Assembly (NCBI GenBank): GCA_041648935.1
Contig: JBAZOA010000001.1
Coordinates: 2,433 to 66,432, forward strand
DNA: 64,000 nucleotides
Source: Candidatus Omnitrophota bacterium
Lineage (GTDB): Bacteria; Omnitrophota; Gorgyraeia; Gorgyraeales; Gorgyraeaceae
Direction: 5' to 3'
How positions within the stretch are numbered: the stretch's first letter is position 1; every line of letters starts with the position of its first letter. The notes under the pieces are model-generated. The model had not been told where the DNA came from and did not search any database. It saw only the letters and a program-made list of their open reading frames with translations. Both the position numbers and the translations under genes were made by a program. Shown one piece after another: positions 11,358 through 26,626 of this stretch.

Positions 11358-12862
11358 CTCAATACCGCCTTCATCACTATGTTAGCGTAGCTGGTGCCTT
11401 TCAGTAAAACGCCTGAGGCGGTCTCGATAAAAAACCTGAAGGGGGGCAGAAGCATCAGGCCTCCCGCCGCGCACATGACCGCCAGACACACCATGGAAAT
11501 CTTCATCGTGAAAGACGCGTCTTTTACGCCCCTCATCCTGTCTTTTATCTCCCCCAGGAAAGCGAGCTTCCTCGCCTTCATCAGCGCGGACAAGGTGAAC
11601 ACGCTTCCTATTATCGCGCAGAGCGCGTAACCGAAATGCCCTGACTGGACACAGGCCGCGATTATGATAAGCTTGCTGAAAAATCCGCTGAAAGGGGGTA
11701 TGCCCGAGATTGACATGGACGCGATGAGATTCGTCTTTGAGGTAAGCGGCATCAGTTTATCCAATCCCCCCGCCTCTTTCAAGTCCCTCGTACCCGTCGA
11801 ATAATCCATCGCTCCCGCGTTCAAGAAAAGCAGGGACTTCATGACAGAGTGATTGAACAAATGGAAAAGCCCGCCGAACACCCCCAAAGGCGTGCCCAGG
11901 CTGATACCTAATATTATATATCCTATCTGGCTGATAGACGAATAAGCCAGCAGCCTCTTGAAATCCGACTGCCTCAAAGCGAGCATGCCGGCGATTATGA
12001 TAGAGATGACGCCGAAAAACATCAGGGCCTTTAAATATCCCTGGCCGGCGCCTATCACGTTAAATAAAATCCTGGTCAGGCTGTAAATCCCCAGGGTCTT
12101 TATCAAAACCCCGGAAAGCATCGCCGATATGGAGGCCGGGGCCGAGGAATGCGCGTCAGGGAGCCACGCGTGAAACGGGATCAGGGCCGCCTTTAAACTG
12201 AAACCTGCCAGAAACAGGACACCGGCAAACGGCACTACCCAGACGCTGTGCCTGTAACTCAGCACCCTGGCCATGTCCGCCATGTTCAAGGTTGACGTGA
12301 AACTGTAAAGGAGCGCTATGCCCATGAATATGAAACTCGACGCGACCGAACCCATGACGGCGTATTTAAAAGACGCCTCCAGCTCTTCCTCTCCCGTGCC
12401 GAAGGCCACCAGGGCGTAACTCGCCACTGAGGCCACCTCCAGGAACACGAAAAGATTGAACATGTCGCCTGTCATGGCCACGCCGTTCATGCCGCACACC
12501 ATCAGAGAAAATAGGATGAAAAATTTCGGCTTGTCCGTGTATTTTTCCATGTAACCGACAGAATACACGGCGACGAAAAACGCCACGAGATTAACTACCA
12601 CCAGCATCAGGCCGCTGAACCCGTCCAGCACCATGCATATGCCGAAAGGCGGGGCCCACCCGCCCAGCTTGTAAACCAATATCTTGTCCGGCGCGGACTC
12701 AAGCAGGATTCTCGCGTATACGGAAAGGCCAAGCATGAGTCCCGAGCTCACGACCGTCATCACTTCGGCGAACCGCCTCATGTATCTGCCGAACAGGGAA
12801 TTAAGGAACGCGGCGGCAAGGGGCACTATCACGAATAAAGGTATCATATTCAGGGCTTTCAT
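11354..12862 (-). CDS. mrpD: Mrp subunit D / NuoN-like proton-translocating membrane subunit (complex I subunit 2/4/5 family)
   Basis: 502 aa, ~14 TM helices, conserved antiporter-module motifs (HAWLPDAH). Confidence 0.8.
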   Translation of the reverse strand: MKALNMIPLFVIVPLAAAFLNSLFGRYMRRFAEVMTVVSSGLMLGLSVYARILLESAPDKILVYKLGGWAPPFGICMVLDGFSGLMLVVVNLVAFFVAVYSVGYMEKYTDKPKFFILFSLMVCGMNGVAMTGDMFNLFVFLEVASVASYALVAFGTGEEELEASFKYAVMGSVASSFIFMGIALLYSFTSTLNMADMARVLSYRHSVWVVPFAGVLFLAGFSLKAALIPFHAWLPDAHSSAPASISAMLSGVLIKTLGIYSLTRILFNVIGAGQGYLKALMFFGVISIIIAGMLALRQSDFKRLLAYSSISQIGYIILGISLGTPLGVFGGLFHLFNHSVMKSLLFLNAGAMDYSTGTRDLKEAGGLDKLMPLTSKTNLIASMSISGIPPFSGFFSKLIIIAACVQSGHFGYALCAIIGSVFTLSALMKARKLAFLGEIKDRMRGVKDASFTMKISMVCLAVMCAAGGLMLLPPFRFFIETASGVLLKGTSYANIVMKAVLR

Positions 12863-12865
12863 TTC

Positions 12866-13204
12866 TTATCCTTTAAGCCTCCGTATCTTGGTGATATCCA
12901 GGGTGCCGTATTTTTCGTACAGCCTGATGCTGATGGCGATCAAAAGCGCCATTACCGCGAGACCTATGACGATAGAAGTCATGACCAGCGCCTGCGGGAT
13001 TGGGTCAACCATATTGACTATGCCCTGATCATGGGCGTCTATGGGCGCCCTTCCGCGGAACTTGTATCCCAACAATACAAAAAACAAGTTGACCGAATAA
13101 CTCATTATCGCGATGCCCATGATTATCTTGACGATATTGCGCTTGCGCAAGACACCGTAAAGGCCGATAGAAAACAATATAAAGCATAAAAAATAAAGGG
13201 TCAT
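12866..13204 (-). CDS. mrpC: Mrp subunit C / NuoK-like
   Basis: 112 aa, 3 TM helices, typical NuoK/MnhC pattern. Confidence 0.8.
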   Translation of the reverse strand: MTLYFLCFILFSIGLYGVLRKRNIVKIIMGIAIMSYSVNLFFVLLGYKFRGRAPIDAHDQGIVNMVDPIPQALVMTSIVIGLAVMALLIAISIRLYEKYGTLDITKIRRLKG

Positions 13205-13205
13205 G

Positions 13206-13652
13206 TTATTTCCTCGACCTTTCCAAAATCACCAGGGCTAGAAAAATGGCGAACAGGCCGACGCCCACCTTCAGCCCTATGGATATATTGCTCAGGGGTA
13301 TGGTGCCGGCGCTGAACAGGTTGAACGCCTCGCCCTTTGTCATCACGTTCATGAAAAACGTGCCCCCGAAAAACCCCAGGAGCGCCACCGCCAGAAACAT
13401 GACCGCGCCCACGGTCTCCAGTTTAGAGGCGACATTCTCCGAGATCCTCGATAACCTTGTTTCCTTGCCAAAGGCGATCAATAGATTAACAAACGCGAGC
13501 GCTATGATCACCCCTCCCGCGAAACCGCCTCCCGGGGCAAGATGCCCGTGCAGGATGATGTGCAGCCCGAAGATCAGGATGATGCCGGCTGTCAGGCGGC
13601 TCGCCGTCTTCACCACCAAAGACATATCTTCCCTTGAATAGTTACCCGTCAT
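13206..13652 (-). CDS. mrpB: Mrp subunit B (MnhB domain) protein
   Basis: GHLAPGGGFAGGVI is the MnhB signature. Confidence 0.7.
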   Translation of the reverse strand: MTGNYSREDMSLVVKTASRLTAGIILIFGLHIILHGHLAPGGGFAGGVIIALAFVNLLIAFGKETRLSRISENVASKLETVGAVMFLAVALLGFFGGTFFMNVMTKGEAFNLFSAGTIPLSNISIGLKVGVGLFAIFLALVILERSRK

Positions 13653-14179
13653 GCCGCGTCTCCATGATTCTTCTTGCCTGGTTTTCGCAAAACCGCCATT
13701 ATGCCTATTATGGCGGTGAATAAGACCGCGACCTCTCCCAGCGTGTCATACGCCCGGAAGTCCAGCACTGTCGCGCTCACCAGATTAACGGCTCCCGTTT
13801 TATTGACCCCTTCCTCTATGTATTTCCTGACGACCTCCATCAGGGGATTGCCGAAAGACGGCAATTCTCTCAGGGCCAGCCAGCTGAACGAAAGAAATAC
13901 GCAAAGGAAGATAACCGTCGTGAAAGTATTGAAGACCCAGCGGCCCTCTACCACCAGGGGCAGGTCCTTTCTTATGGTCGCCCTGATCAATATTATCAGG
14001 CATAATAATTCCACCACGAGCTGGGTTATGGCCAGATCTGGCGCCTTCAGCATCAAAAAAGCGAGACAAAGGGCGAACCCCACGGCGCCGAGAGAGATGA
14101 CGCTCGAAAACAGGTCTTTCACCTCCATCGCCGTTATCGCGGCGAATATCATGAATAATAAAAGTATGTGCAGTTCCAT
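13649..14179 (-). CDS. MrpA C-terminal-like (DUF4040/MbhD-like) membrane subunit
   Basis: LKAPDLAITQLVVE motif of DUF4040; 176 aa, 5 TM helices; lies between mrpA and mrpB. Confidence 0.55.
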   Translation of the reverse strand: MELHILLLFMIFAAITAMEVKDLFSSVISLGAVGFALCLAFLMLKAPDLAITQLVVELLCLIILIRATIRKDLPLVVEGRWVFNTFTTVIFLCVFLSFSWLALRELPSFGNPLMEVVRKYIEEGVNKTGAVNLVSATVLDFRAYDTLGEVAVLFTAIIGIMAVLRKPGKKNHGDAA

Positions 14180-14180
14180 G

Positions 14181-15959
14181 TCATTTCACCAAAAATAAAA
14201 ACAGCCCCATCATGCCCAATAACGCCCACACCAGATAAGTCGGCAAGACCCCGTTATGCAGATATTGGAAAAATCTCCCGAAACCAAGCGTGATATTTTT
14301 TCCCTGTTCATAGATATCGAAAAATCCGGTTTCCGCCTTTTTATAGATACCCCGCAGCATGCCGTGTTCTTTCACGGTGTTATAAAATTCCGTCCCGGAA
14401 AGCCTCATCTCATCCGATATCTCCTCTCCCCCTATGTAAGGAGGACTTTCCCTGACGCCTTTGAAATTCCCCATAAAACATATCAATACCCCCGCCCCCA
14501 GGCCCGTCAACAAAAACAAGGCGGCTTTTATGGACGGCCAAGCGCCTATGAATGCCAAACCGCCCGGCAACACCGGGATTATCAGATACCTTAACGGGAC
14601 GATATAAGCGAACACGCCGAACACAATGCATAAAACCGCCAGAATCACGACTGGAAGCCACATCTGCCACGGCACCTCACGAGCCAAACCGTGTTTTCTC
14701 GGGCCTAAAAAGACGCCGTTTATCAATTTTACGGACGCCGCCACCGCCAATCCGCTCCCAAACATCGCCGCTACCAGACAAAATATCCATAACACGCCGC
14801 CCTCGCTCCCTTTTTCCACCAGGGCCTGATAGATCATCCACTTTGAGAAGAATCCGTTGAAAGGAGGTATGCCGGACATGGCGAAAAACGCCGTGAGCGC
14901 CGTCATAAACGACAACGGCATCATCTTCGCGAACCCGCCCAGACGGTCCAGGTCGGAATCATTGGCCCTGTACTCGACGTTTCCACAGGACAAGAACAGG
15001 CACGATTTATAGATAGCGTGGTTGACCATGTGGAACAGCCCGCCCGCCAGGCCGATCACGCTGCCCGTACCTATCCCGAGCACTATATACCCTACCTGGC
15101 TTATCGCGCAAAAACTCAGAAGTTTCTTGAAATCATTCTGGACCAGGGCCGCCATGGCCCCGGCCATTATAGTTATCACCCCTATTATCATCAACAGCGC
15201 GCGGGAAAAATTATCAAGTACGAACACGTTCATGACCAATCTCGCCAATAAATATATCCCCAGCAGTTTATCAAGGGAAGCGGGGAGAAACGCTGTCACC
15301 GTAATCGGCGCCTCTTTGGCCGTATCGGGTATCCATGAATGAAAAGGCATGGCCCCGGCTTTGGCGAACGCTCCAATCGCGATGAATAGGAACGCCCAGA
15401 AAGAAAGCGGGTTATCTATCTCCACCCTTATGCCGCTTAAGCTCAAAGAACCCGTGATGCGCCATAATAGGGCGAAACCCAGTATCATGAAACCGTCTGA
15501 ACCGGCCACTATTATCAGGGTCTTCTTGCTTATAGCCGCTGAGCGCGCGCCCGAGACATTGATGAGAGTATAAAGCAAAAGGCCTAAAAACCCCCAGGCG
15601 GCGATCAGTAAAATAACATTATTCGAGACCGAGGCCAATAAAGAAATCCCTATGGTCCATATCACGCAGGCGTAATAAGACGATACGTCTTTATACGACG
15701 ACATGGACCGCGTTGAATACAGGGTGACGAGCGCCCCGAAAAAGCCTATGCCCAGCGCTATGAATCTGGAGAGGGAATCCACGTATAAGAAATCAGCTTC
15801 TATGGGCGCCTTCAAGAAGATCCTGATTGACGCCGCCAATAGGTACAGAGAGGTAACCAAGCTAAAGCCCTCTGTCATCTTCCTGAAGGTCTTTGGAAGG
15901 ACGAGGATAAACAGCCCCGCGATTATCGAAACCAGTATTGGCTGTAACAATACGCCCAT
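14181..15959 (-). CDS. mrpA: Mrp subunit A / NuoL-like proton-translocating membrane subunit
   Basis: 592 aa polytopic protein of the complex I subunit 5 family (HSWIPD motif). Ends 1 nt before the hydrogenase large-subunit stop. Confidence 0.8.
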   Translation of the reverse strand: MGVLLQPILVSIIAGLFILVLPKTFRKMTEGFSLVTSLYLLAASIRIFLKAPIEADFLYVDSLSRFIALGIGFFGALVTLYSTRSMSSYKDVSSYYACVIWTIGISLLASVSNNVILLIAAWGFLGLLLYTLINVSGARSAAISKKTLIIVAGSDGFMILGFALLWRITGSLSLSGIRVEIDNPLSFWAFLFIAIGAFAKAGAMPFHSWIPDTAKEAPITVTAFLPASLDKLLGIYLLARLVMNVFVLDNFSRALLMIIGVITIMAGAMAALVQNDFKKLLSFCAISQVGYIVLGIGTGSVIGLAGGLFHMVNHAIYKSCLFLSCGNVEYRANDSDLDRLGGFAKMMPLSFMTALTAFFAMSGIPPFNGFFSKWMIYQALVEKGSEGGVLWIFCLVAAMFGSGLAVAASVKLINGVFLGPRKHGLAREVPWQMWLPVVILAVLCIVFGVFAYIVPLRYLIIPVLPGGLAFIGAWPSIKAALFLLTGLGAGVLICFMGNFKGVRESPPYIGGEEISDEMRLSGTEFYNTVKEHGMLRGIYKKAETGFFDIYEQGKNITLGFGRFFQYLHNGVLPTYLVWALLGMMGLFLFLVK

Positions 15960-15960
15960 T

Positions 15961-17136
15961 CTATGTCTTTCTCATCCTCTCTGTCTTTTCCTGCGAAAGC
16001 CTGACCAGGTCCTGTCCGGTCATGACCTTTTTACCCGTCCCGCGATCGACCACGGTGACGCGCTCGGTGCAGCAATAACATGGATCGACGGCCGCCAGGA
16101 TTATGGTGGCGTCCGATATGGTCTGGCCCACCACGGCCTTTTTATTGGACGCGATGTTCATGAAGCTCGGCGCCCGTATCTTGTGCCTTGAGGGCGTGTT
16201 TGTCCCGTCTGACATTATGTAATGCGCCACTTCGCCTCTCGGCGCCTCGTGCCTGCCTATGCCCTCGCCCACAGGCATGTCTTTTATGGCCGCGTCTATC
16301 GGGCCGTCCGGCATCTTATCGAGACATTGCGTTATTATGCTCACCGATTCATAAAGTTCCAATACCCTGACAACGGTCTTACTGAACACGTCGCCTTTTT
16401 CCTGCGTCACCACGTTCCACTTCACCTTATCATAGGCCGCGTAGGGATCGTCTTTTCTCACGTCGATCGCGACGCCTGAGGCCCTCGCCGTGGGACCCAC
16501 GACGCAATATGTCTTCACGTCGTCTTTCGTGAGCACCCCGACGCCCTCGGTCCTGGCGCGTATCACGGGGTCGTCCATTATGGCCCCCTTGAACATGTCA
16601 AACTTGGAAAGCAGGCCCTGGAGCGTCTTTTTTATCCACGGGAAATCTTCTTTGGACATGTCCCTTCTGACCCCGCCCGGCTTCATCATGGCGTAATTCT
16701 GCCTGTTACCCGCCACGCATTCGAATATATCCAGCACGGATTCCCTGTATTTCCACGCCCACATCCAAACCGTATTATACCCCAGAAAATGCCCCGCCAG
16801 CCCGAGCCAAAGGAGATGACTGTGTATCCTCTCGAGCTCTCCTATCACGGTCCTTATGTAAAGCGCCCTTTCAGGCGGGTCCTTGGCCAGGAGGTCGTCA
16901 ATGGCGTTCACGTAAGCGAATGGATGCGAGGTCGAGCATATCCCGCAGATCCTTTCCACTAAAAACGTCGCCTGGTCATAACTCTTTGATTCGGATATCT
17001 TCTCGATCAGGCGGTGGTTATAACCGATATCTATGTCTATGTCGACCACTGTCTCGCCTTCGACGTGCAACTTGAAAAATTCAGGCTCTTCCTGCAGCGG
17101 ATGGTACGGTCCTATGGGTATGATCTTGCGCGCCAT
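15961..17136 (-). CDS. Group 4 [NiFe]-hydrogenase large (catalytic) subunit (NuoD/EchE/MbhL-like)
   Basis: N-terminal NiFe motif RICGICSTSH (RxCGxCxxxH) and C-terminal DPCYCCTER (DPCxxC). Confidence 0.85.
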   Translation of the reverse strand: MARKIIPIGPYHPLQEEPEFFKLHVEGETVVDIDIDIGYNHRLIEKISESKSYDQATFLVERICGICSTSHPFAYVNAIDDLLAKDPPERALYIRTVIGELERIHSHLLWLGLAGHFLGYNTVWMWAWKYRESVLDIFECVAGNRQNYAMMKPGGVRRDMSKEDFPWIKKTLQGLLSKFDMFKGAIMDDPVIRARTEGVGVLTKDDVKTYCVVGPTARASGVAIDVRKDDPYAAYDKVKWNVVTQEKGDVFSKTVVRVLELYESVSIITQCLDKMPDGPIDAAIKDMPVGEGIGRHEAPRGEVAHYIMSDGTNTPSRHKIRAPSFMNIASNKKAVVGQTISDATIILAAVDPCYCCTERVTVVDRGTGKKVMTGQDLVRLSQEKTERMRKT

Positions 17137-17571
17137 TTATCGATCTCTCCTTAAAGGATAATTGCCTTTCGGCCAGTCCTCTTTTAAAAGCAGGTGCCTC
17201 AGGTTCGGATGGCCCTTAAAATTAACTCCGAGCATCTCGTGTATCTCCATCTCTATCCACTCCGCGCCTTTCATGACGCCTGTCAACGTTTCCGTCTCGG
17301 GCTCCGGCTTAGCCAAAATAACCCGGAGAGAGACAATAAGCCCTGTCTCGTCTATCGAAAAGTGATAGAGTATCTCTATCGCCTTTCTGGTGTCCACTCC
17401 TGACGCGGTAATGAATCTGGCGCCCGCGTCATTATAAAGATACTTGACCAGCGGGACCAGCGCTGGATTGGAAACGGTAAAATAAATCCTGTTCTTCGAC
17501 CTGTCCTGGAAATCCAGGATGTCTTTTCCCGCGCGCACCTTTATGTTCTCTATTATCTCCTGTCTTTTCAT
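17137..17571 (-). CDS. NuoC/EchD/MbhK-like hydrogenase subunit (30 kDa subunit family)
   Basis: 144 aa NuoC-family fold, immediately upstream of the large subunit. Confidence 0.7.
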   Translation of the reverse strand: MKRQEIIENIKVRAGKDILDFQDRSKNRIYFTVSNPALVPLVKYLYNDAGARFITASGVDTRKAIEILYHFSIDETGLIVSLRVILAKPEPETETLTGVMKGAEWIEMEIHEMLGVNFKGHPNLRHLLLKEDWPKGNYPLRRDR

Positions 17572-17595
17572 TTTAACACCCTTGTCATTGCGAAC

Positions 17596-17635
17596 AGCAA
17601 CAGTAGAGGAGGTTTAAACCTCCTCTACTGTTGCT
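17596..17635. repeat. E2 perfect palindrome, copy 1 (AGCAACAGTAGAGGAGG-TTTAAA-CCTCCTCTACTGTTGCT)
   Basis: 40-bp perfect palindrome. Overlaps the NuoB-like stop codon by 2 nt and lies 24 nt upstream of the NuoC-like ATG. Related to the copy at 20289. Confidence 0.9.
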
Positions 17636-18062
17636 ACTTTTTGCTTGTCAATTTTTCTATGAGTTTCGTGATGCCCGCTATCATGGCCTCCGGCTTAGGC
17701 GGGCAGCCCGGTATGTAGACATCAACCGGCAGGACAGAATCGACCGGATCCGGGCAATTCGGCCCGTTTCTGAAAATACCCTGTCCGCACGCGCACGTGC
17801 CTATGGCGATAACGACGCACGGCTTCGGGGCCTGCGCGTAAATCTTTTTTATCAACGGCAGCGCCTTCAGGTTTAAAGAACCCGTCACCAATATGGCGTC
17901 CGCGTGCCTTATGCTTCCGACCAGCGTGATGCCGAACCTCTCCGCGTCGAACCTCGGGGTCAGCATATCCAATATCTCTATGTCGCAGTTATTACAGCTT
18001 CCCGTCGACATGTGATAAACCCAGATCGACTTGGTCAATGCCTTTAGCCTGAATCCCATCAT
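17634..18062 (-). CDS. [NiFe]-hydrogenase small subunit (NuoB/EchC/MbhJ-like)
   Basis: Fe-S ligand motifs (GSCNNC, GTCA) and the GCPPKPEAMIAGI signature. Confidence 0.85.
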   Translation of the reverse strand: MMGFRLKALTKSIWVYHMSTGSCNNCDIEILDMLTPRFDAERFGITLVGSIRHADAILVTGSLNLKALPLIKKIYAQAPKPCVVIAIGTCACGQGIFRNGPNCPDPVDSVLPVDVYIPGCPPKPEAMIAGITKLIEKLTSKK

Positions 18063-18964
18063 AACCCCGCTATCGCCAATAAAACCGCCAAGGTCGCGAG
18101 CATGGTCATCTTCCCCCAGAAAAACCTCATTGCCTGGTCTATCTTCACCCTTGGGTTAGTGTTTTTTATGAGAATCGCCGCGACCACCAGTATCAGATAT
18201 TTCCACAGGCCGAAACCGCCCAAAAACAAAGTAACCAACAATACGGGCAGGGCCACCATCATCATGGCCCTCGTGAGCTTGAATATAGCCAATAAGATCC
18301 CTGAATATTCTATAAAAACCCCTCCCATTATCTCTGTCTCCGCCTCAGCCATGTCAAAAGGCACGAGCCCGAGCTTTGCCTGGACGCAGAATACGGCTAC
18401 TAAAACAGCCAGGATCCCTGAGGCGCTGAACACGAACGGTCCGTTCGCGGCCTGGTACGCGGCTATCTGGCCAAGACGAAGCAGGCCCCCTGTCTTTATT
18501 ATCGGCACGCTGAGCGAAAGGATAAAGGGAAGTTCGTACGCCAGCATTAGTTTTATCTCTCTTGACGCGCCGAGCGACGCCAGGGGATTCGCGCTCGCCG
18601 AAGCCCCCAACATCACCGCCAAAGACGGCAATGTCAAAAGATACACTATGACTATCAGGTCCCCGGTGAAACCGATCGAGCTGAAATCCATGTTCGCGAG
18701 CCAGATAAAAGTGGATGACAACATTACGGCGCTGAGGCCCAAAAGCGGCGAAAGGAAAAATAACGGCCTTGAAGCGCCCTGAGGCACTGTTATCTCCTTC
18801 ATGCTCAATTTTACCAAATCCAAGAAAGACTGGTACCACGGCGGCCCAACCCTCCATTGCACCCTGGCGCTCACCTTGCGGTCCACCCACGTAACCAAAA
18901 GACCGAAGATGGCCGTGAATAAAAAGCCCGGGAATATTAAAAAATTGAATAAATATCTTATCAT
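18059..18964 (-). CDS. NuoH/EchB/MbhM-like integral membrane hydrogenase subunit
   Basis: 8 TM helices. Start moved to MIRYLFNFLIFPGF, which overlaps the upstream stop by ATGA. The 57-codon Arg-rich upstream extension is rejected. Confidence 0.75.
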   Translation of the reverse strand: MIRYLFNFLIFPGFLFTAIFGLLVTWVDRKVSARVQWRVGPPWYQSFLDLVKLSMKEITVPQGASRPLFFLSPLLGLSAVMLSSTFIWLANMDFSSIGFTGDLIVIVYLLTLPSLAVMLGASASANPLASLGASREIKLMLAYELPFILSLSVPIIKTGGLLRLGQIAAYQAANGPFVFSASGILAVLVAVFCVQAKLGLVPFDMAEAETEIMGGVFIEYSGILLAIFKLTRAMMMVALPVLLVTLFLGGFGLWKYLILVVAAILIKNTNPRVKIDQAMRFFWGKMTMLATLAVLLAIAGL

Positions 18965-19443
18965 GGGTGATACTTTTTCCACGGCATGGCGTGGACCGCT
19001 ATGTGCTTTCCTATCAGATATATATCGTCTTTCTCGGATTCTTCCACATCCATGAACTTCACCGCGTCTTCCACGGAACACGTCTTCACGCAGACAGGAT
19101 CCTCGCTTCCGCTCCTGTCGATGCAGGCGTCGCACTGAGCCACGATATAAGGCACCGTATCAATGGCTATTGTCCCGAAAGGACACGCCATGGAGCAGGA
19201 TTTACAGGACACACAGCGCATGGTATAGCGCTTCACTACCCCGTCCGCCTGTTTTTCCAGAGCCTCCTTTGGACACGAATTGACGCAGGGCGCCTCTTCG
19301 CATTTCCTGCATATGTATAAAAATTCTCCCATCTCCCTCAGGCGCGTAATGCCTGAATTCCCGGGATGATAATAATAACTGCACTCCGCTTTTATGGGCT
19401 CACACTTGTTCAATTTTTCCAAATCGATAAAAAGGCGTTTCAT
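18961..19443 (-). CDS. 4Fe-4S ferredoxin-type electron-transfer subunit (HycB/CooF-like)
   Basis: CRKCEEAPCVNSCP, CVSCKSCSMACPFG, CDACIDRS...CVKTC give four Cys clusters. Confidence 0.7.
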   Translation of the reverse strand: MKRLFIDLEKLNKCEPIKAECSYYYHPGNSGITRLREMGEFLYICRKCEEAPCVNSCPKEALEKQADGVVKRYTMRCVSCKSCSMACPFGTIAIDTVPYIVAQCDACIDRSGSEDPVCVKTCSVEDAVKFMDVEESEKDDIYLIGKHIAVHAMPWKKYHP

Positions 19444-19444
19444 G

Positions 19445-20272
19445 TCAATCCCATATCTCGTGAATGTGGCTTATCCTGTCGTACCTGAATACCGGGCCGT
19501 CCTTGCACGCGTAAAAATTCCCCAGGCGGCAATGGCCACATTTTCCCATACCGCAGCTCATGTTCTTTTCCATCGACAGATAAACCTGGTCCTGCCTGTA
19601 TCCCACGTCCATAAGCTTGAACGTGGCGAACTTCATCATTATGGGCGGCCCGCACACTATCGCCACGCTGTTTTTTAAATCCAGATCCAGCTTGTCCAGC
19701 GTGGTCGTGACCAGGCCGACATTGCCTTTCCAGCTATCATCTTTTCTATCCACTGTTATCCTGAATTTGATCTTCTTTTTGTCCAGGCACTGCCACTTAT
19801 CCAGCATGCAGTCCTTGTATATGATATCTGACGGCGTCCTGGAACCGCAGCAGAACAGGACGCTCTTGTACCTGTCTATGTCGTGCGCCAACGCCAGAAA
19901 AAGCGCCCTCAGAGGCGCGAGCCCGACCCCGCCGCCCACAAGCAGGACGTCCTTGCCCTCGAATTCGGATAACGGATACTCGTTGCCAAAAGGCCCCCTG
20001 AGCCCGACCGCGTCTCCTTTTTTCAGGCCGTGTATCATGCCGGTGATCCTGCCCGCTTTCATTATCGTGACTTCCAGCCTGCTCTTTTCATAAGGGGAGG
20101 ATGAAGGGGTAAAAGGCGCCTCTCCCACGCCGGGCACTGTCATTTCTATGAACTGCCCCGCCTTGAAACCCATCGGCCTCTCAGGCCTCAGACAGAATGT
20201 CTTTATGGTGGGGCTTTCGTCTATTATATCAATTACTTCTGTCTTTACGGGTAAATACGGATTATCTATCAT
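19445..20272 (-). CDS. FAD/NAD(P)-binding oxidoreductase with C-terminal 2Fe-2S (sulfhydrogenase gamma HydG / AsrB-like)
   Basis: FNR-like fold (GQFIEMTVPG, LLVGGGVGLAPL, CGPP) plus C-terminal CGMGKCGHC. Confidence 0.7.
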   Translation of the reverse strand: MIDNPYLPVKTEVIDIIDESPTIKTFCLRPERPMGFKAGQFIEMTVPGVGEAPFTPSSSPYEKSRLEVTIMKAGRITGMIHGLKKGDAVGLRGPFGNEYPLSEFEGKDVLLVGGGVGLAPLRALFLALAHDIDRYKSVLFCCGSRTPSDIIYKDCMLDKWQCLDKKKIKFRITVDRKDDSWKGNVGLVTTTLDKLDLDLKNSVAIVCGPPIMMKFATFKLMDVGYRQDQVYLSMEKNMSCGMGKCGHCRLGNFYACKDGPVFRYDRISHIHEIWD

Positions 20273-20288
20273 CACTTAATCAATCCCT

Positions 20289-20330
20289 CAGCAGCAGTAG
20301 GGGAGGTTTAAACCTCCCCTACTGCTGCTG
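20289..20330. repeat. E2 perfect palindrome, copy 2 (CAGCAGCAGTAGGGGAGG-TTTAAA-CCTCCCCTACTGCTGCTG)
   Basis: 42-bp perfect palindrome, 3 nt after the HydB-like stop and 13-16 nt upstream of the HydG-like start. Differs from copy 1 at positions that are changed symmetrically in both arms. Confidence 0.9.
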
Positions 20331-20333
20331 CTA

Positions 20334-21362
20334 TTACTCAAGCGCTAATTTACTGAGGACTTCCCTTATGTCTATCTTCCCGGGACACGCCTCCACACAC
20401 CTGCCGCAGCCGGTGCACCCGAACCTGGCGATATTATCGGGGAAAAAATTGAATTTCTTGTCAAATCTATTTCTCAGGCGCTGCGCGAGGAGCTTGCGGG
20501 GATTCGCGCCTCCGGCGACCCTCGCGAAAGACATCAAGAGACAGGAATCCCATTGCCTCAACCGCTCAAAACCCTCTTCGCCGTTCTGGTCCTTCAGCAC
20601 GAAACAATGGCAGGCCGGACATATGAAATTGCACGCGCCGCATTCAACACACGTCTTCGCCGTCTCTTCCCACAATTTCGACTCGAATTTTTTCCTGAAT
20701 AAACCCTGCACGGCATCGCTCGGCGGGATATTGCTCTTCTCCACGTGCCTCGAAAGCCTGTCTTTCAGCTGTCTCCTGTTGGATTCTCTTTTTTCGGAAT
20801 AGGGCGCGGCGCTCTGGAATAATTTAAAATATTCCCTTATTATCTTTTCTCCCTTATTGGAACCGGCCTCCGCCACATAACCGCTTTCTATCTCGGAGAT
20901 ATTTATGTCAAAATTATCCGTTGGGTAAGGCATTATGCCTATGGCGAGACAAAAACACGTCTGGCCATGGGTAGTGCAATCGGATGATATGATCAGGCCT
21001 TCTTCTCTCCTGGAGACGTAAAAGGGATCCTTGAACGGTTCCTGCGAATATACATAGTCCATGACCTTGAAGGAAGCGAGATCGCATGCCTTGGCGCCTA
21101 TTATGGCGATGGGCCTTTCAGTCCTGTCGCTGTTCTTTTCCGAAAAATAACCCGCCACCTTTGACCGCGCCGGAAAATAAAAACTCTTCAGGGGTTCGAC
21201 GGCCCTGATCTCCCCCAGCACGGCGCCTTCAAGCCCTTCCTCCCCCATTTTCTTATAAAACCGCTCTTCACCTGACTTGACCGGGACATAAACCCTGTAC
21301 GTCTTGGCCAAAGACATGGCCAATCTGTCCAGGTTCGGCCTATTAATAAAGTATAAATCCAT
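20334..21362 (-). CDS. Fe-S oxidoreductase subunit (sulfhydrogenase beta HydB / AsrA-like)
   Basis: CVECGACNFICPACHC and CTGCGRCVEACP 4Fe-4S motifs plus an N-terminal Cys cluster; pairs with the adjacent HydG-like gene. Confidence 0.65.
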   Translation of the reverse strand: MDLYFINRPNLDRLAMSLAKTYRVYVPVKSGEERFYKKMGEEGLEGAVLGEIRAVEPLKSFYFPARSKVAGYFSEKNSDRTERPIAIIGAKACDLASFKVMDYVYSQEPFKDPFYVSRREEGLIISSDCTTHGQTCFCLAIGIMPYPTDNFDINISEIESGYVAEAGSNKGEKIIREYFKLFQSAAPYSEKRESNRRQLKDRLSRHVEKSNIPPSDAVQGLFRKKFESKLWEETAKTCVECGACNFICPACHCFVLKDQNGEEGFERLRQWDSCLLMSFARVAGGANPRKLLAQRLRNRFDKKFNFFPDNIARFGCTGCGRCVEACPGKIDIREVLSKLALE

Positions 21363-21477: not shown

Positions 21478-21885
21478 TTAGAAATGCAGCTCCATGGCGC
21501 GAGGCGGACAAGCCTTGATGCACAATTCACAAGCAATGCACTTGTCTTCATAAAACAGGACCTTGCGGGTCACGGGATCCGTTACCAGCGCGGCTGTGGG
21601 GCATATCGGCACGCACGCGCCGCAGTGGGTACATTTCGCCTCGTTTCTCTTGATGTCCTTTGAAAGCGGCTGGACCGTCACGCCGAGAGACCTAGCGTGT
21701 TTTACTGCCTTTTCAAGGTTCGCCTCGTCGCCGGTGAACTCAAGCACCAGGAGCCCTTCCTCTCTGGGCGTCACGTAGGCCTTTAATATATTGAATTCCA
21801 GGTCAAAATCCTTTACCATCCTGTACACTATGGGCTGATCCACAAGCCTGTGGGGAAATTTTAAAACAATTCGCCTTGAAACCAT
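21478..21885 (-). CDS. NIL-domain 4Fe-4S ferredoxin
   Basis: N-terminal NIL-like domain. C-terminal CTHCGACVPICP and CIACELCIKACP. Confidence 0.55.
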   Translation of the reverse strand: MVSRRIVLKFPHRLVDQPIVYRMVKDFDLEFNILKAYVTPREEGLLVLEFTGDEANLEKAVKHARSLGVTVQPLSKDIKRNEAKCTHCGACVPICPTAALVTDPVTRKVLFYEDKCIACELCIKACPPRAMELHF

Positions 21886-21902
21886 ATTGGACCTCCTTCC
21901 GG

Positions 21903-22634
21903 CTACGCCAACTCTATATTGCCAGCGCTCCCGAAATCACTGCCGATTATCGCCAACGCGCCCTCGACACCTTTAATAGAAACGGCGAATTCTAAAGCCG
22001 CCTTTATGTCTTTTTTATCTTTTATCCTGTTGCAGACGGCGGTCGCCATCGCGTCCGCCAGAGATGTCGACTTGGATATTATAACACAGGCATCGGCTTT
22101 TCCAAAGCTCAAAGAATGACCCACTGTACCGCTGGACGCGCATACCCCCAAAGGTGTCTCCGCGGCTTTTATCTTTATAAAAAGTTTATTGCTCAATGGG
22201 GAATCGCCCGCGAATATCGCTACGATCCTCTCCTTCAGAGATTTTATGAATATGTCCCCGCCGTTTTCTATGATAACCTGTCTGGAACGCGCCAATAGCT
22301 CCCCGCCGACAAATTCAGCGATCGCCCCGGCCACCGCGGCCATTGGTCCGACCCCGGCCAAACCCGACGCCCTGATCATCTCTCTTATGATTTCCGGGGC
22401 GGATAGGTCCTGGCCGACAGGCCCCAGGCTCGCCTGGAATTCAGGTCTTTTTTTTATATACCCCTCTATCTCTCTCCTGTATTTCTTGACGGCGTCCTCC
22501 GCGGCGCGGCTCAGATCCTTTTCAGCGAAAATGAAAAGGTCAGTCTCTTTAACGACAACCTCCTGTCCAGTGAGGTCGCCGGAACCGGACCATTTTCTGT
22601 AAAACCGCTCCTGGAAATCCTTGCGCTTGGCCAT
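21903..22634 (-). CDS. UPF0280/ApbE-superfamily-like protein
   Basis: Gly/Ala-rich core (GLAGVGPMAAVAGAIAEFVGGELL) reminiscent of the UPF0280 family. Start moved to MAKRKDF; the Arg-rich extension is rejected. Confidence 0.35.
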   Translation of the reverse strand: MAKRKDFQERFYRKWSGSGDLTGQEVVVKETDLFIFAEKDLSRAAEDAVKKYRREIEGYIKKRPEFQASLGPVGQDLSAPEIIREMIRASGLAGVGPMAAVAGAIAEFVGGELLARSRQVIIENGGDIFIKSLKERIVAIFAGDSPLSNKLFIKIKAAETPLGVCASSGTVGHSLSFGKADACVIISKSTSLADAMATAVCNRIKDKKDIKAALEFAVSIKGVEGALAIIGSDFGSAGNIELA

Positions 22635-22639
22635 GCCGC

Positions 22640-22984
22640 TTAATCCACCTCTATTGACTCGACGCTGATGCCTGCGCCCCCAATGACTTCCACCGCGGCT
22701 GACTTGCACTCGGGACACCCCTTAACGAACTTACCGGCCAGAAATTCATTGCCGCAATTCTTGCATCTGAACCCCGGCTTGACCTTTTTAAATTTCAATA
22801 TCGCCTTTTCCAAAGACGTCCCAACGGCCCGCTCTTTAAAATGAAACTCAAAATGATCAGCGCTTATCTGCTCCAATTCCCCCAGGAGTATATTAATCCT
22901 AAGGACCCTCGAATAAGGGCCAATCTCCTTGAGCTTTGAATTTACTATGAAAATTATGTTGTCCACAACCCCTGTCTCGTGCAT
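22640..22984 (-). CDS. hypA: Hydrogenase nickel-incorporation protein HypA
   Basis: Starts MHE; two CxxC pairs (CKNCG...CPEC); 114 aa. Confidence 0.8.
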   Translation of the reverse strand: MHETGVVDNIIFIVNSKLKEIGPYSRVLRINILLGELEQISADHFEFHFKERAVGTSLEKAILKFKKVKPGFRCKNCGNEFLAGKFVKGCPECKSAAVEVIGGAGISVESIEVD

Positions 22985-22994
22985 ATGCTCTCCT

Positions 22995-23993
22995 CTAACA
23001 AATCCTCGGCAGCTGCTCCCCTGTCAGCATGTCCAGGATCCTGGCGCCGCCAATCCTTGTTTTCATGTAAACCCCGCCGCCCTTGTCTCCGGTAACCTCT
23101 CCTATTATCCCGCAGGACCTGCCGAGAGGATGTTTTTTCATCTTGTTCAGCACCCCCATCGCCGACTCAGGGGAGACAATCGCCACAACCTTTCCCTCAT
23201 TGGCCATGTAAAGAGGGTCAAACCCCAATATCTCGCACAGGGCCCTTACCGAGCTTCTCACCGGGATAGACGCCTCTTCTATGAAAATATCGCGTCCCAG
23301 CGCCGCGCTTATCTCATTCAAGGTGGTTGCCAGGCCTCCCCGCGTGGGGTCTCTCATGAATTTTATACCCCGGCACATCACGCTCGACACAAGCCCGTTC
23401 AGGGGAGCGCAGTCACTGAAGATCCTCGCCCTGAATTTAAGGTCCTCCCTGGCCAATAATATCGACGCCGCGTGATCCCCCGCAGTCCCGCTCAAGATTA
23501 TCTTGTCGCCGGGCCGAATCCTGTCCATGGATAAATCAGCGTTTTTATATACCTCTCCCACGCCTGAGGTATTTATAAAAATCTTGTCCGCGCCGCCCTT
23601 TTCGACAACCTTGAAATCGCCCGTGACCACATCCACCCCCGCCTGCTCGCAGGCGGACTTTATTGACACGGTTATCTTCCTGAGTTCGTCATATCCGAAC
23701 CCCTCCTCCACGATCATGGCGCACGACAAATACCTCGGCCTGGCGCCGCTGACGCACAGGTCATTGACAGTGCCGCTGACCGCCAATCTGCCTATATCCC
23801 CCCCCGGGAAAAATATCGGCCTGACCACGAATGAATCCGTCGTGTACGCCAATTTTTTCCCTGCCATGTCTATAAAAGCGGAATCGCCCAGTTTATCAAG
23901 GGAGGGATTTCCAAAATTCTTTAAAAACAACTCCCTGATCAATTCATGCGTCAATCTTCCGCCGCTGCCGTGAGATAAGGTTATTTTTTTCAT
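22995..23993 (-). CDS. hypE: Hydrogenase maturation protein HypE
   Basis: MKKITLSHGSGG N-terminus, AIR-synthase-related fold, C-terminal PRIC. Start overlaps the hypD stop (ATGA). Confidence 0.85.
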   Translation of the reverse strand: MKKITLSHGSGGRLTHELIRELFLKNFGNPSLDKLGDSAFIDMAGKKLAYTTDSFVVRPIFFPGGDIGRLAVSGTVNDLCVSGARPRYLSCAMIVEEGFGYDELRKITVSIKSACEQAGVDVVTGDFKVVEKGGADKIFINTSGVGEVYKNADLSMDRIRPGDKIILSGTAGDHAASILLAREDLKFRARIFSDCAPLNGLVSSVMCRGIKFMRDPTRGGLATTLNEISAALGRDIFIEEASIPVRSSVRALCEILGFDPLYMANEGKVVAIVSPESAMGVLNKMKKHPLGRSCGIIGEVTGDKGGGVYMKTRIGGARILDMLTGEQLPRIC

Positions 23994-25075
23994 TTTCTGT
24001 ACCTGTAATACGCGGCGCACGCGCCTTCGCCTGAAACCATGCACGCGCCTCTTGGATTTTCCGGAGTACAGCTTTTCCCGAATAGCCTGCAGTCGCGCGG
24101 CGTCTTGATGCCCTTCAAAACCTCGCCGCATACGCATCCCTTGTCGGGCCTTGTAATCACGCGGGGAAGACGAAATACCTTCCCGGCGTCAAGATCGGAA
24201 TAGGCCTTATTTACGCTCAATCCGCTTTTAGGTATGATCCCCATGCCGCGCCACTCTGAATCGCCCTCCGAAAAGACCCTGGACATTAACGCCAGGGCCT
24301 TCCTGTTTCCGGACCGCCTCACGACCCTTGCGTACTGATTTTCGACCTCCGAGCGGCCTGACTTCAGCTGCTTTACCAGCATAAGGATAGACTGCAATAT
24401 GTCCAATGGCTCAAATCCGCTTATCACGCAGGGTATCTTGTATTTTTTGGAGATCCCGGCATAAGGCCCCGTGCCTATGACGGCGCTCACGTGCGCGGGG
24501 CATAAAAACCCCTGTATATTTATCCTTTTGTCCCTGGCCAGTAAATCCATGGCCGGCGGCATGACCTTGTGGCCGGAATAAACGAAAAAATTCCGTATCT
24601 TTCTCTTTCGCGCCAATTCCATGCTCGCCGCGACCGTCGGGACCGTTGTCTCAAATCCTATGCCGAGAAACACTATTTTTTTATCCGGGTTTTTCGCCGC
24701 GAAATCCATCGCGTCCAGTACGGAATAAACGACCCTAACCTTACCCTTCCCTCTTTCCTGGGCGAGGGTCGAATCGGAACCCGGCACCTTGAGCATGTCC
24801 CCGAAACTGGCCACTGTAACGTCTTTGATGCCCGCGAGGCCTATCGCCCTGTCTATGTAATCTTTGGGCGTGACGCATACCGGGCATCCCGGACCCGAGA
24901 TAAGATTTATATCCCGCGGCAGCATCCTCCGTATGCCGAATCTCTCCACCGCCATGGTATGTGTCCCGCACACCTCCATGAAATTCACGCCGCCCAGACC
25001 CCTGGCGTGAGAGGATATAGCCCCGGCTATGTCCCGCGCGATCTTAAAATTTCTGAATTCATCTACGTATTTCAC
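23990..25075 (-). CDS. hypD: Hydrogenase maturation protein HypD
   Basis: CGTHT, GPGCPVCV, CPVC-type motifs. Confidence 0.85.
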   Translation of the reverse strand: MKYVDEFRNFKIARDIAGAISSHARGLGGVNFMEVCGTHTMAVERFGIRRMLPRDINLISGPGCPVCVTPKDYIDRAIGLAGIKDVTVASFGDMLKVPGSDSTLAQERGKGKVRVVYSVLDAMDFAAKNPDKKIVFLGIGFETTVPTVAASMELARKRKIRNFFVYSGHKVMPPAMDLLARDKRINIQGFLCPAHVSAVIGTGPYAGISKKYKIPCVISGFEPLDILQSILMLVKQLKSGRSEVENQYARVVRRSGNRKALALMSRVFSEGDSEWRGMGIIPKSGLSVNKAYSDLDAGKVFRLPRVITRPDKGCVCGEVLKGIKTPRDCRLFGKSCTPENPRGACMVSGEGACAAYYRYRK

Positions 25076-25281
25076 TTGATCTCTCTCAATAACCGCAATG
25101 TCTCTTTCGCCTTTCCAGGATCTATCCTCTCTATCGCGAAACCGGCGTGTACTATGACGTAATCCCCTGTCTTGGGCCTTGTCAGGAAACCTATGTTAAT
25201 CCTGCGCCGCACAGACTCCACGGACACGATAGCGCTGTCGCCCTCTATCTTTAAAATCTTCATCGGGATACCGAGACACAT
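25072..25281 (-). CDS. hypC: Hydrogenase maturation chaperone HypC
   Basis: MCLGIP N-terminus; 69 aa. Confidence 0.8.
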   Translation of the reverse strand: MCLGIPMKILKIEGDSAIVSVESVRRRINIGFLTRPKTGDYVIVHAGFAIERIDPGKAKETLRLLREIK

Positions 25282-25296
25282 CTTACCTTTCCTTCG

Positions 25297-25337
25297 CTAA
25301 GTTGACAAAAGGAGTATTGCTTGTTGTGTCAACTTAG
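25297..25337. repeat. E1 palindromic intergenic element, copy C (ctaagttgaca-N19-tgtcaacttag; perfect 11-bp arms)
   Basis: Contains the hypF-like TGA stop in its arm and ends 15 nt upstream of the hypC ATG. Confidence 0.85.
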
Positions 25338-26489
25338 ACCGGCTATTATTGCCTGACCCAGAGGTATGCCGCCGTCATGCGTCGGGATATTTTTATGTAA
25401 ATACGCCTTAAAACCGCTTTTCCCTAAAATGGACCCAACGCGGCCGCTCAGGTATCTGTTCTGGAACACGCCTCCGCTCAGGCATACCCTTGATATTCTA
25501 TATCTTTTCCTCAATAAAACGCAAACATCTTTTATCATCCCGCATACCGCGTCGTGGAATTTTAAAGAAATGACGCCGGGCGGGATTTTCTTATCTAAAT
25601 CCCTGATTATACCCTTAATCACTGGCCCGGGCTCTATGATAAAAATATCCTTATCTTTAATTATATCAAACTTATACCTTGTGACCTTGTGACCTTGTGA
25701 CCTTGTGACCAATATCTCTTTCTCTAATTTAACTGCCGCCTCCCCCTCGTATTTCGCGAAGCCGCATATCCCGATCAACGCCGAGACAGCGTAGAAAAGA
25801 CGGCCCGCGCTCGAAGTCAACGGGCTGTTTATGTTTTTCGCTATCATCTGAATCGCGATATTCGTATTTTCCCTGTTTATTTTCAACCTGCTCATGTCTT
25901 TATCGTGAACGCCATGCAGATAACTCAGCGCCATGCGCCAGGGCTCCCTGACGCACGCCTCTCCCCCGGGCATGGGCATGTATCTCAAATGTCCGGCGCG
26001 CGCGAACCCCCTGAAGCCGCCGATAAAAAATTCCCCGCCCCAGATATTTCCGTCAGGGCCGAATCCTGTCCCGTCAAACGCGACACCTATTATTTCGCCC
26101 TTGACATTATTATCAGCCATGCAGCTCGCCACGTGCGCCTCGTGATGCTGTATTTTTTTTATCCTTAACCCTTCGTCCCGCGCCAGCTCATCCGCGTATT
26201 TAGCGGAAATATATTCCGGATGCAGATCGCATGCTATTATTTTCGGCTTTACGCGGAATTTCTTACGCGCCGCTCTAATATGCCGCTCGAAAGACCTGAA
26301 ATTACCCAGCTCGGACAAATCTCCCCCCGCTTCCGAGAGATACGCGACATTCCCATCGGCAAGGCAAAAGGCGCTCTTTGACTGGGCGCCAAGCGCGAGG
26401 ACGCTGTTCTTTAAACGATAAGGTAAAATAATTTTGATATAATCCATAAAAATAACTTTGTCTCCGGCCGACAGGCCTGAGAAAAGCAT
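25329..26489 (-). CDS. hypF: HypF-like carbamoyltransferase, C-terminal Kae1/YgjD-like domain only (lacks acylphosphatase, Zn-finger and YrdC domains)
   Basis: Aligns with only the C-terminal ~380 aa of HypF (LALGAQSKSAFCLADGNVAYLSEAGGDL...). Start uncertain (Met at 26489 or 26447), and no SD before either. Confidence 0.55.
   Translation of the reverse strand: MLFSGLSAGDKVIFMDYIKIILPYRLKNSVLALGAQSKSAFCLADGNVAYLSEAGGDLSELGNFRSFERHIRAARKKFRVKPKIIACDLHPEYISAKYADELARDEGLRIKKIQHHEAHVASCMADNNVKGEIIGVAFDGTGFGPDGNIWGGEFFIGGFRGFARAGHLRYMPMPGGEACVREPWRMALSYLHGVHDKDMSRLKINRENTNIAIQMIAKNINSPLTSSAGRLFYAVSALIGICGFAKYEGEAAVKLEKEILVTRSQGHKVTRYKFDIIKDKDIFIIEPGPVIKGIIRDLDKKIPPGVISLKFHDAVCGMIKDVCVLLRKRYRISRVCLSGGVFQNRYLSGRVGSILGKSGFKAYLHKNIPTHDGGIPLGQAIIAGLS
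25681..25710. repeat. Tandem octamer repeat (gtgacctt) x3.75 inside the hypF-like coding sequence
   Basis: gtgaccttgtgaccttgtgaccttgtgacc encodes VTRSQGHKVTR on the minus strand. Confidence 0.9.
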
Positions 26490-26511
26490 TGTTTGTTCGA
26501 GCGGGCACGGT

Positions 26512-26536
26512 GTCCCGGCGCTGAAAGTGCCGGGAC
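26512..26536 (-). other. GC-rich hairpin (GTCCCGGC-N9-GCCGGGAC) in the leader of the hypF-like gene
   Basis: Perfect 8-bp GC stem 22 nt upstream of the candidate hypF start, within an unusually GC-rich 137-nt intergenic segment. Confidence 0.4.
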
Positions 26537-26555
26537 GAGCGAGAAGAAACACTGA

Positions 26556-26570
26556 GCGAGGCCGCCTCGC
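26556..26570 (-). terminator. Candidate terminator hairpin (GCGAGGC-C-GCCTCGC) for the metE-like gene
   Basis: GC hairpin followed on the minus strand by UCAGUGUUUCUUCUC, about 57 nt after the metE-like stop. Confidence 0.3.
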
Positions 26571-26626
26571 TGGGGCGGCCGAGCGTCTTTTCGAAGGCCT
26601 GCCGGCCGGAGACATAAATTATCTTA

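Follow-up and report, generated by a model that had tools for sequence, protein, structure and literature searches.

What can a HypF protein do that consists of its last catalytic domain only? This question is raised by a 64,000-nucleotide stretch of DNA from a Candidatus Omnitrophota bacterium (hereafter the window), which forms one end of a 157,694-bp contig (ENA ERZ27247363 k141_2608681) and to which all coordinates given here refer. In it, the hypF position of a hydrogenase maturation operon is occupied by a short gene, here termed hypF', that encodes a stand-alone Kae1-like carbamoyltransferase module. Canonical HypF uses its acylphosphatase and its YrdC-like domain to convert carbamoyl phosphate and ATP to carbamoyl-AMP. 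Carbamate and then carbamoyl-AMP pass via an internal channel to the Kae1-like site, and a cysteine of HypE is carbamoylated (PMC6022934; PMC10484737). HypF is usually described as an enzyme with three active sites that channels the labile carbamate and carbamoyl-AMP, and a neighbourhood survey of 600 HypF proteins encoded near [NiFe] hydrogenases found YrdC in 97% of them, about 3% being without it (PMC12727194). We think it probable, if with reservations, that hypF' encodes a functional, naturally shortened HypF which moves carbamoyl from carbamoyl-AMP that a different protein has made to HypE.

The hypF' open reading frame (ORF) lies on the minus strand and ends at 25329 (stop codon 25329-25331). 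Its only Pfam matches are HypF_C (PF17788, E=6e-30) and HypF_C_2 (PF22521, E=2.6e-76). No match to the acylphosphatase domain (PF00708), to the zf-HYPF CxxC motifs (PF07503) or to the YrdC domain (PF01300), for which full-length controls were clearly positive, was found by Pfam in the ORF or upstream of it. The match to the NCBIfam model for HypF, TIGR00143, was confined to profile positions 384-740 of 741, and the score of 261.4 bits fell below the curated whole-protein threshold of 466.1. A phmmer search against the PDB aligned the protein with residues 392-746 of the 761-aa HypF 3VTH (E=1.3e-78), the ORF beginning about five residues before residue 392, and the corresponding parts of 4G9I and 3TSP were matched as well. 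An AlphaFold model computed from the family alignment reached a predicted local distance difference test (pLDDT) score of 93.8 and superimposed on the Kae1-like domain of 3VTH/3VTI with a template modelling (TM) score of 0.91-0.92 and a root-mean-square deviation (rmsd) of 1.6 Å. The initial annotation, made from the sequence alone, had taken this ORF for a complete HypF Kae1-like module whose N-terminal partners are not encoded upstream, and had proposed alignment to HypF structures as a check of the domain boundary. Pfam, TIGR00143, the 3VTH alignment and the model all agree with it, and the boundary is confirmed by both the 3VTH alignment and the TM score of the model.

Compared with canonical HypF (E. 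coli b2712; structures 3TSP/3TSQ, 3VTH/3VTI and 4G9I), the hypF' product thus comes without the acylphosphatase, the two zinc-finger motifs and the YrdC-like domain, that is without two of three active sites and the internal channel. What it retains is 28-38% identical to the Kae1-like domain of those proteins, and the model fits the domains from Caldanaerobacter subterraneus (3VTH/3VTI) and E. coli (3TSP/3TSQ) with rmsd values of 1.6-2.4 Å and that from Thermococcus kodakarensis (4G9I) with 2.9-3.4 Å. The operon partners are the same, and the HypE-binding module seen in 3VTI is also found in the hypF' model.

Four candidate start codons were considered for hypF' (26615, 26552, 26489 and 26447). 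Nearly all of the 59 homologues inspected begin with M-[KND]-Y-x-x-I, and the equivalent in the window, 'MDYIKIILPY', starts at ATG 26447. Because of this match we placed the start there; judged by the homologous sequences it is most likely the true one and gives a protein of 372 aa. The ORF stays open as far as 26615, the part beyond ATG 26447 being read-through of a palindromic element. The start initially chosen, at 26489, lies 14 codons too far upstream. With the revised start, the distance to the stop codon of the preceding metE-like gene is 179 nt and not 137 nt of non-coding DNA, and a Shine-Dalgarno sequence, which had been thought to be missing, is recognizable as a weak GGAG about 13-14 nt upstream of the ATG.

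On the minus strand the genes follow each other in the order LacI-type regulator, MetE-like gene, hypF', hypC, hypD, hypE, hypA, UPF0280/ApbE-like gene, NIL-ferredoxin gene and hydrogenase block; the latter starts with Fer4_22 and FAD/NAD subunits and continues with an Mbh/Mrp-type group 4 [NiFe] hydrogenase (Table 1). The short gene thus takes the place of hypF in an operon of the form hypF'-hypC-hypD-hypE(-hypA), which lies directly upstream of this hydrogenase, and the neighbouring hypC, hypD, hypE and hypA genes look intact. HypE homologues have 332 aa, and the C-terminal cysteine can be read in the window translation. As the hydrogenase large subunit carries the motifs RICGICSTSH and DPCYCC, it is a true [NiFe] enzyme in need of the Fe(CN)2CO cofactor. 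Group 4g hydrogenases of the Mbh+Mrp type have been reported in Omnitrophota metagenome-assembled genomes (MAGs) in a paper that does not mention Hyp proteins (PMC8542988).

The truncation is a property of a whole family. In a large protein database, at least 120 clusters are 46-63% identical to the window protein. Among the matches listed, nearly all complete clusters have 336-432 aa and only the two Kae1 Pfam domains, the few shorter ones being fragments, and many are named Candidatus Omnitrophica/Omnitrophota. A scan of one genome per GTDB species gave the best 80 loci, whose six-frame ORFs we then searched with a hidden Markov model (HMM; 763 positions) built from 67 full-length HypF proteins. 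Among these, HypF starts at HMM position 386-400 in all 39 assessable loci of Omnitrophota-type species (labelled Omnitrophota, or labelled 'uncultured Planctomycetia' but falling within that clade), and all 40 scorable loci from other phyla (Atribacterota, Bacillota, Bacteroidota, Brocadiaceae and others) are full length. Every truncated locus is a hypF'-hypC-hypD-hypE operon and adjoins a group 4 [NiFe] hydrogenase wherever it reaches far enough. Assembly error or a pseudogene, causes of truncation for which the initial annotation had proposed checks, are ruled out since the same boundary recurs independently in 39 species-level genomes and more than 100 metagenomic clusters with invariant catalytic residues.

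In a neighbour-joining tree of the Kae1 region, the truncated Omnitrophota forms fell into one clade that includes no full-length member, spans 41-63% identity and is nested among full-length HypF proteins, its sister being a full-length HypF from Atribacterota. From this topology, the simplest reading would be that the N-terminal half was lost once in the distant past and that purifying selection has since acted for a long time on what is an ordinary transferase module. Several MAGs labelled 'uncultured Planctomycetia bacterium' have the same operon and a HypF' inside the Omnitrophota clade (loci L015, L023, L025, L029, L032, L037, L045, L052 and L066); judging from these sequences, their taxonomic labels look unreliable. 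Outside this clade, a library of representatives at 50% identity holds about 22 further complete-looking Kae1-only clusters of 361-407 aa with a methionine at the domain boundary (e.g. P0121, P0125, P0128, P0136, P0142, P0149, P0151, P0156 and P0158). The architecture therefore seems to recur, and one-domain HypF proteins may have arisen repeatedly in uncultured lineages. A class of intermediate length (440-640 aa) that would combine YrdC and Kae1 was discarded: the six members scanned with Pfam begin inside a domain and seem to be fragments of genes that have lost their 5' end.

The metal and nucleotide residues corresponding to E. coli HypF H475, H479, D502, N701 and D727 (H475, H479, D502 and D727 forming the His/His/Asp/Asp metal site) show 100% conservation among about 110 truncated homologues, and the window protein has them too. 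They align with the zinc ligands His111/His115/Asp300 and with Asn272 of TsaD, whose roles have been described (PMC7913687). Hardly any residue is conserved in the truncated clade yet rare in full-length HypF proteins, and we therefore regard the protein as an ordinary Kae1-like module. Residue comparison of truncated with full-length forms revealed no clade-specific adaptation of the active site.

Where, then, is the N-terminal half? HMM positions 1-390 were searched against six-frame ORFs with a threshold of E<=10. Even at this threshold, neither the window nor some 12 kb of additional contig sequence (together about 76 kb out of 157.7 kb) nor the 10 kb on either side of 49 truncated-gene loci (657 kb; 48 Omnitrophota-type loci and the HypF1 locus of Cupriavidus necator) contained an ORF resembling the HypF N-terminal half. 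Inspection of the ORFs in gaps inside the operons likewise yielded nothing YrdC-like, only prepilin-like, GIY-YIG and similar inserts. As far as sequence searches go, this argues against an adjacent split hypF gene and not against a distant N-terminal half or a second, full-length hypF.

Only the last active site and the HypE-binding module have been kept, and for this reason we propose that the hypF' product performs the last transfer step alone, docked on HypE as in the 3VTI complex. Carbamoyl-AMP would be supplied in trans by a separately encoded enzyme; candidates are an adenylate-forming protein of the YrdC/TsaC/Sua5 type, a detached HypF N-terminal half encoded at another genomic site, and a paralogue of full length. 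The activity and the supply in trans are the two elements that we infer here. Such a division of labour would parallel the synthesis of N6-threonylcarbamoyladenosine (t6A), in which TsaD receives threonylcarbamoyl-AMP from the separate TsaC. The TsaD/Kae1 proteins and their separate TsaC/Sua5 follow the same logic, a Kae1-fold transferase obtaining a labile acyl-adenylate from a YrdC-fold enzyme. TsaD shares with hypF' the His/His/Asp metal site and the asparagine contact to adenine, and with the rest of the family also an aspartate that binds ribose. It differs in its acceptor, A37 of tRNA instead of a protein thiol, and in its partners, neither TsaB nor TsaE accompanying hypF'; structurally, the hypF' model reaches a TM score of just 0.55-0.59 with TsaD. 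In the O-carbamoyltransferases TobZ, NodU and CmcH a YrdC-like domain is, to our knowledge, always fused C-terminally, and hypF' has none. Their Kae1-like domain transfers carbamoyl from carbamoyl-AMP (PMC6022934).

The use of Kae1-like domains in several carbamoyl-transfer reactions, as in TsaD and TobZ/NodU (PMC6022934; PMC10484737), could also suggest that the module has been recruited to another job, with a different carbamoylation substrate or a TsaD-like function on tRNA, and is no longer a HypF. We consider this very improbable: the protein scores 19.9 bits against the TsaD model TIGR03723 (cut-off 296), it shares 38-48% identity with the Kae1-like domains of genuine HypF proteins, among which it is nested, and its linkage to hypCDE is invariant.

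The Kae1-only architecture itself is already known, from HypF1 of Cupriavidus necator (Ralstonia eutropha) H16, a published precedent that the initial annotation had missed. This protein (394 aa, WP_011153939.1), encoded on the megaplasmid pHG1, likewise consists of HypF_C and HypF_C_2 from the YrdC/Kae1 boundary onwards, and its gene, like hypF', is located directly upstream of hypC-hypD-hypE. The metal ligands and the ribose-binding aspartate are conserved, and identity to the window protein amounts to 30%. HypF1 has been stated to be one that 'likely requires carbamoyl adenylate' (PMC9100943). In the tree, it groups with the full-length HypF2 of C. necator, whereas the Omnitrophota clade groups with full-length forms from Atribacterota and Bacillota; the separate placement means that the two truncations are independent and do not go back to common descent. 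In sum, hypF' is a real gene and a new, independently evolved and apparently phylum-wide member of the 'truncated HypF1' type. The settings also differ. HypF1 coexists with two full-length HypF proteins on pHG1 and serves O2-tolerant uptake hydrogenases, while the Omnitrophota hosts live anaerobically and have an Mbh-type hydrogenase of group 4; a full-length copy did not turn up in the contig stretch and the loci searched.

The situation on pHG1, where the truncated HypF1 stands beside full-length HypF2 and HypF3 and in E. coli hosts is not needed or even inhibits (PMC9100943; PMC5350229), could be taken as a model for the Omnitrophota. A full-length hypF elsewhere would then do the work or supply the adenylate, and the Kae1-only copy would be a redundant paralogue, an accessory to it or a competitor for HypE. 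We hold this to be unlikely, if worth keeping in mind. None of the Omnitrophota-labelled loci among the best 80 genome matches has a full-length HypF, the truncated gene holds the sole hypF position of an operon that serves a hydrogenase, and the retention of all catalytic residues across a clade diverged to 41% identity would be unexpected for a redundant protein.

A second alternative takes the missing half at face value. The Kae1-like module could be a self-sufficient minimal system that carbamoylates HypE from another donor, for instance carbamoyl phosphate bound beside AMP or ADP, or with the help of the MetE-like, COG2122-like or NIL-ferredoxin proteins, and that needs no YrdC-type step. 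The N-terminal half was found near none of the 48 Omnitrophota-type loci. A MetE-like gene adjoins hypF' in all close relatives; overall, 33 of 35 informative truncated loci have such a homologue beside hypF' or a little upstream of it, as against 0 of 40 full-length loci, and the gap between the two genes is just 7 nt in some cases. A UPF0280 gene behaves alike: it lies downstream of hypE/hypA in Omnitrophota loci and is absent from full-length HypF loci. The whole sandwich, MetE-like gene upstream and UPF0280 plus NIL-ferredoxin genes downstream, is kept across the Omnitrophota clade (L001-L007, L011-L058) and absent from full-length loci. Against a minimal system stand the near-absence of clade-specific changes in the active site and the fact that we know of no Kae1/TsaD-family enzyme that forms its own adenylate. 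The neighbours, too, speak for a different role, as set out below, and we regard a minimal system as unlikely.

The model of the MetE-like protein (pLDDT 90.9) has cobalamin-independent methionine synthases (MetE) as its best PDB folds. The family has the invariant motifs IGSxP, TGP, DEPYL, HCCGN and PxCG, so that homocysteine-/Zn-type motifs are retained together with the MetE fold, and the KGxxTGPV and IDEP motifs, read in the window sequence and in the family consensus, align with E. coli MetE. A PDB sequence search with the protein returned only spurious PPR-repeat matches. In a deeper Omnitrophota clade (L035, L036, L040, L042, L045, L047, L053, L056, L058, L077 and L087, and also L009), genes for agmatinase and a pyruvoyl-dependent arginine decarboxylase intervene between the MetE-like gene and hypF'. 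Agmatinase releases urea. MetE-like homologues that are more distant (about 46-50% identity) are found in unrelated contexts, with no hyp genes beside them. UPF0280 is presumably the same as COG2122. COG2122 and NIL-ferredoxin proteins are known components of homocysteine synthesis (PMC5764234). A gene for a DUF39 protein was not seen near the hyp genes. The intervening polyamine genes, the distant homologues elsewhere, the MetE fold and motifs and the homocysteine-pathway neighbours led us to downgrade the MetE-like protein as a replacement for the missing half. By fold, motifs and context, its gene probably belongs to a methionine/homocysteine gene set and has a housekeeping role; the hyp genes thus appear to be embedded in a methionine/homocysteine gene neighbourhood, and a direct role of the MetE-like, UPF0280 and NIL-ferredoxin proteins in hydrogenase maturation is unlikely.

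A stronger claim, that the Kae1-only protein is the sole HypF of Omnitrophota and that no HypF-type acylphosphatase/zinc-finger/YrdC half exists in the genome, is at present a tentative one and, in our estimate, rather doubtful. If it holds, a whole phylum makes the CN ligands of its [NiFe] hydrogenases with a one-domain HypF, and an enzyme other than HypF, for example the housekeeping TsaC/Sua5, would provide the carbamoyl-adenylate, or another carbamoyl donor would be used; the adjacent MetE-like, COG2122-like or NIL-ferredoxin proteins might then take part. HypF1 of C. necator is the one studied exception to the three-site enzyme and always occurs alongside full-length copies. The Omnitrophota protein, diverged to about 41% identity and placed in the only hypF slot of a hydrogenase operon, provides a natural test of two points: is the transfer module sufficient by itself in vivo, and which protein then supplies carbamoyl-AMP? 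There is also a consequence for annotation, as pipelines may call hydrogenase maturation complete or incomplete for the wrong reason. Genes of this kind are annotated either as 'hypothetical protein' or plainly as 'HypF'.

Several points weigh against a working transferase that is fed in trans. Carbamoyl-AMP is labile and is channelled inside canonical HypF (PMC6022934; PMC10484737), which makes its passage from one protein to another by free diffusion hypothetical. An E. coli hypF mutant was not complemented by HypF1 of C. necator (PMC5350229). Neither about 76 kb of the contig nor 657 kb of related loci revealed a candidate that could supply carbamoyl-AMP, and the key partner is thus hypothetical. 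Two further points concern the window copy itself. Its residue 219 is tyrosine in place of an otherwise invariant aspartate that is found in 100% of about 110 truncated homologues, the window being the only deviant of this set, in 97% of the 67 full-length proteins and in E. coli HypF (D599), C. necator HypF1 and E. coli TsaD (Asp167). In TsaD, this aspartate forms a hydrogen bond with the ribose of a bound nucleotide or adenylate analogue (PMC7913687). The window protein hence lacks the ribose-binding aspartate of the GRxFD motif, through a single-base difference, and Tyr219 may represent a recent inactivating mutation, a tolerated one or an error of the MAG consensus. In addition, the coding region contains a perfect, slippage-prone 8-bp tandem repeat in a variable surface loop, which occurs once in the window and in none of the loci fetched; the hypF' frame would shift if a single unit were added or lost. 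The gene may be impaired in this strain, or else the consensus of the MAG may be in error.

Taken further, these features would make hypF' inactive in this genome only, as a decaying or phase-variable gene or as a sequencing or assembly artefact. Besides Tyr219 and the repeat, a structured element just upstream, in whose fold GGAG and start codon would be sequestered, could be cited for such a view. We rate it as improbable: the reading frame is intact, the window deviates at only three positions that are at least 90% conserved, Tyr219 and two mild ones, so that the gene is not decaying overall, the repeat preserves a loop length similar to that of the homologues, the hypC, hypD, hypE and hypA genes nearby look intact, and a truncation common to 39 genomes is no artefact.

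The upstream element accounts for the whole distance between the metE-like gene and hypF'. A GC-rich hairpin preceding the start had been noticed initially; it is present, but it is only part of a GC-rich palindrome of about 180 nt with a predicted fold of -95.4 kcal/mol (z = -9.2). At one end of the element the inverted arms of 41 nt (26446-26486 and 26587-26627) overlap with the stop codon of the metE-like gene, at the other with the GGAG and the start codon of hypF', and a terminator-like hairpin lies within the element at 26571-26555. A search for riboswitches or other known RNAs in Rfam gave no match for the intergenic region. In relatives, the metE-like/hypF' junction is only 7-50 nt long and the palindrome is absent. 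The element could be a small insertion resembling a miniature inverted-repeat transposable element (MITE) or a repetitive extragenic palindromic (REP) sequence, or a structure for termination or translation control. A MITE family was considered and not taken up, no second copy of the inverted repeat being found in the window or in the fetched loci.

Table 1. Features of the hypF' locus with their coordinates in the 64-kb window
Feature	Position	Strand	Evidence and remarks
hypF', stand-alone Kae1-like carbamoyltransferase module	25329..26447	-	372 aa + stop; Pfam, 3VTH alignment, homologue N-termini, model
Tyr219 codon TAC, in place of invariant Asp (E. coli HypF D599 = TsaD Asp167)	25791..25793	-	alignment
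Perfect 8-bp tandem repeat (ACCTTGTG x4.4) in hypF' coding region, variable surface loop	25676..25710	.	Tandem Repeats Finder score 70, 100% matches
Structured palindromic element, metE-like stop to hypF' start	26448..26626	-	minimum free energy, inverted arms, two GC hairpins + GGAG
hypC	25072..25281	-	Pfam HupF_HypC, E=8.5e-26
hypD	23990..25075	-	Pfam HypD, E=4e-145
hypE, carbamoyl acceptor, 332 aa from 'MKKITLSHGSGG', C-terminus PRIC	22995..23993	-	Pfam AIRS/AIRS_C
hypA	22640..22984	-	Pfam HypA, E=2.8e-23
UPF0280/ApbE-like (COG2122-type) protein	21903..22634	-	NCBIfam PRK04334, 300 bits; PF27030 in relatives
NIL-domain ferredoxin	21478..21885	-	ORF; 135-aa orthologues with PF09383 NIL + Fer4
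MetE-like 'core methionine synthase'-type protein, 343 aa	26627..27658	-	NCBIfam PRK00957, E=9e-9
Client group 4 (Mbh/Mrp-type) membrane-bound [NiFe] hydrogenase with Fer4_22, FAD/NAD subunits	9637..21362	-	Pfam
[NiFe] hydrogenase large subunit	15961-17136	-	RICGICSTSH + DPCYCC motifs

Some variation was seen within the hyp clusters. A hypB gene is absent from the hyp cluster of the window (21900-26500) and from those of all related loci examined, and a match to hypA was not found in several relatives (e.g. L001, L003, L005, L011, L013 and L014). In Ca. Gorgyraea atricola, a GIY-YIG nuclease gene is inserted between hypD and hypE (L006, 11474-11731), and two loci carry prepilin-like ORFs with an N-terminal methylation motif between hypF' and hypC (L035, 8715-9188; L058, 3036-3602).

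Two other observations concern distant parts of the window. An ORF of 2038 aa at 42533-48649 has no Pfam match and the lowest GC content of the window (0.43-0.47 vs about 0.51); it sits among genes for type IV pilus/type II secretion system components, secretin and Ig-like surface proteins. A 72-aa gene product encoded at about 60721-60939 (L095, 9018-9236) has a precomputed Pfam match to MamI (PF26391), a magnetosome membrane family, and its gene adjoins those for a peptidoglycan-binding protein and a BatA-D/MoxR/VWA cluster.

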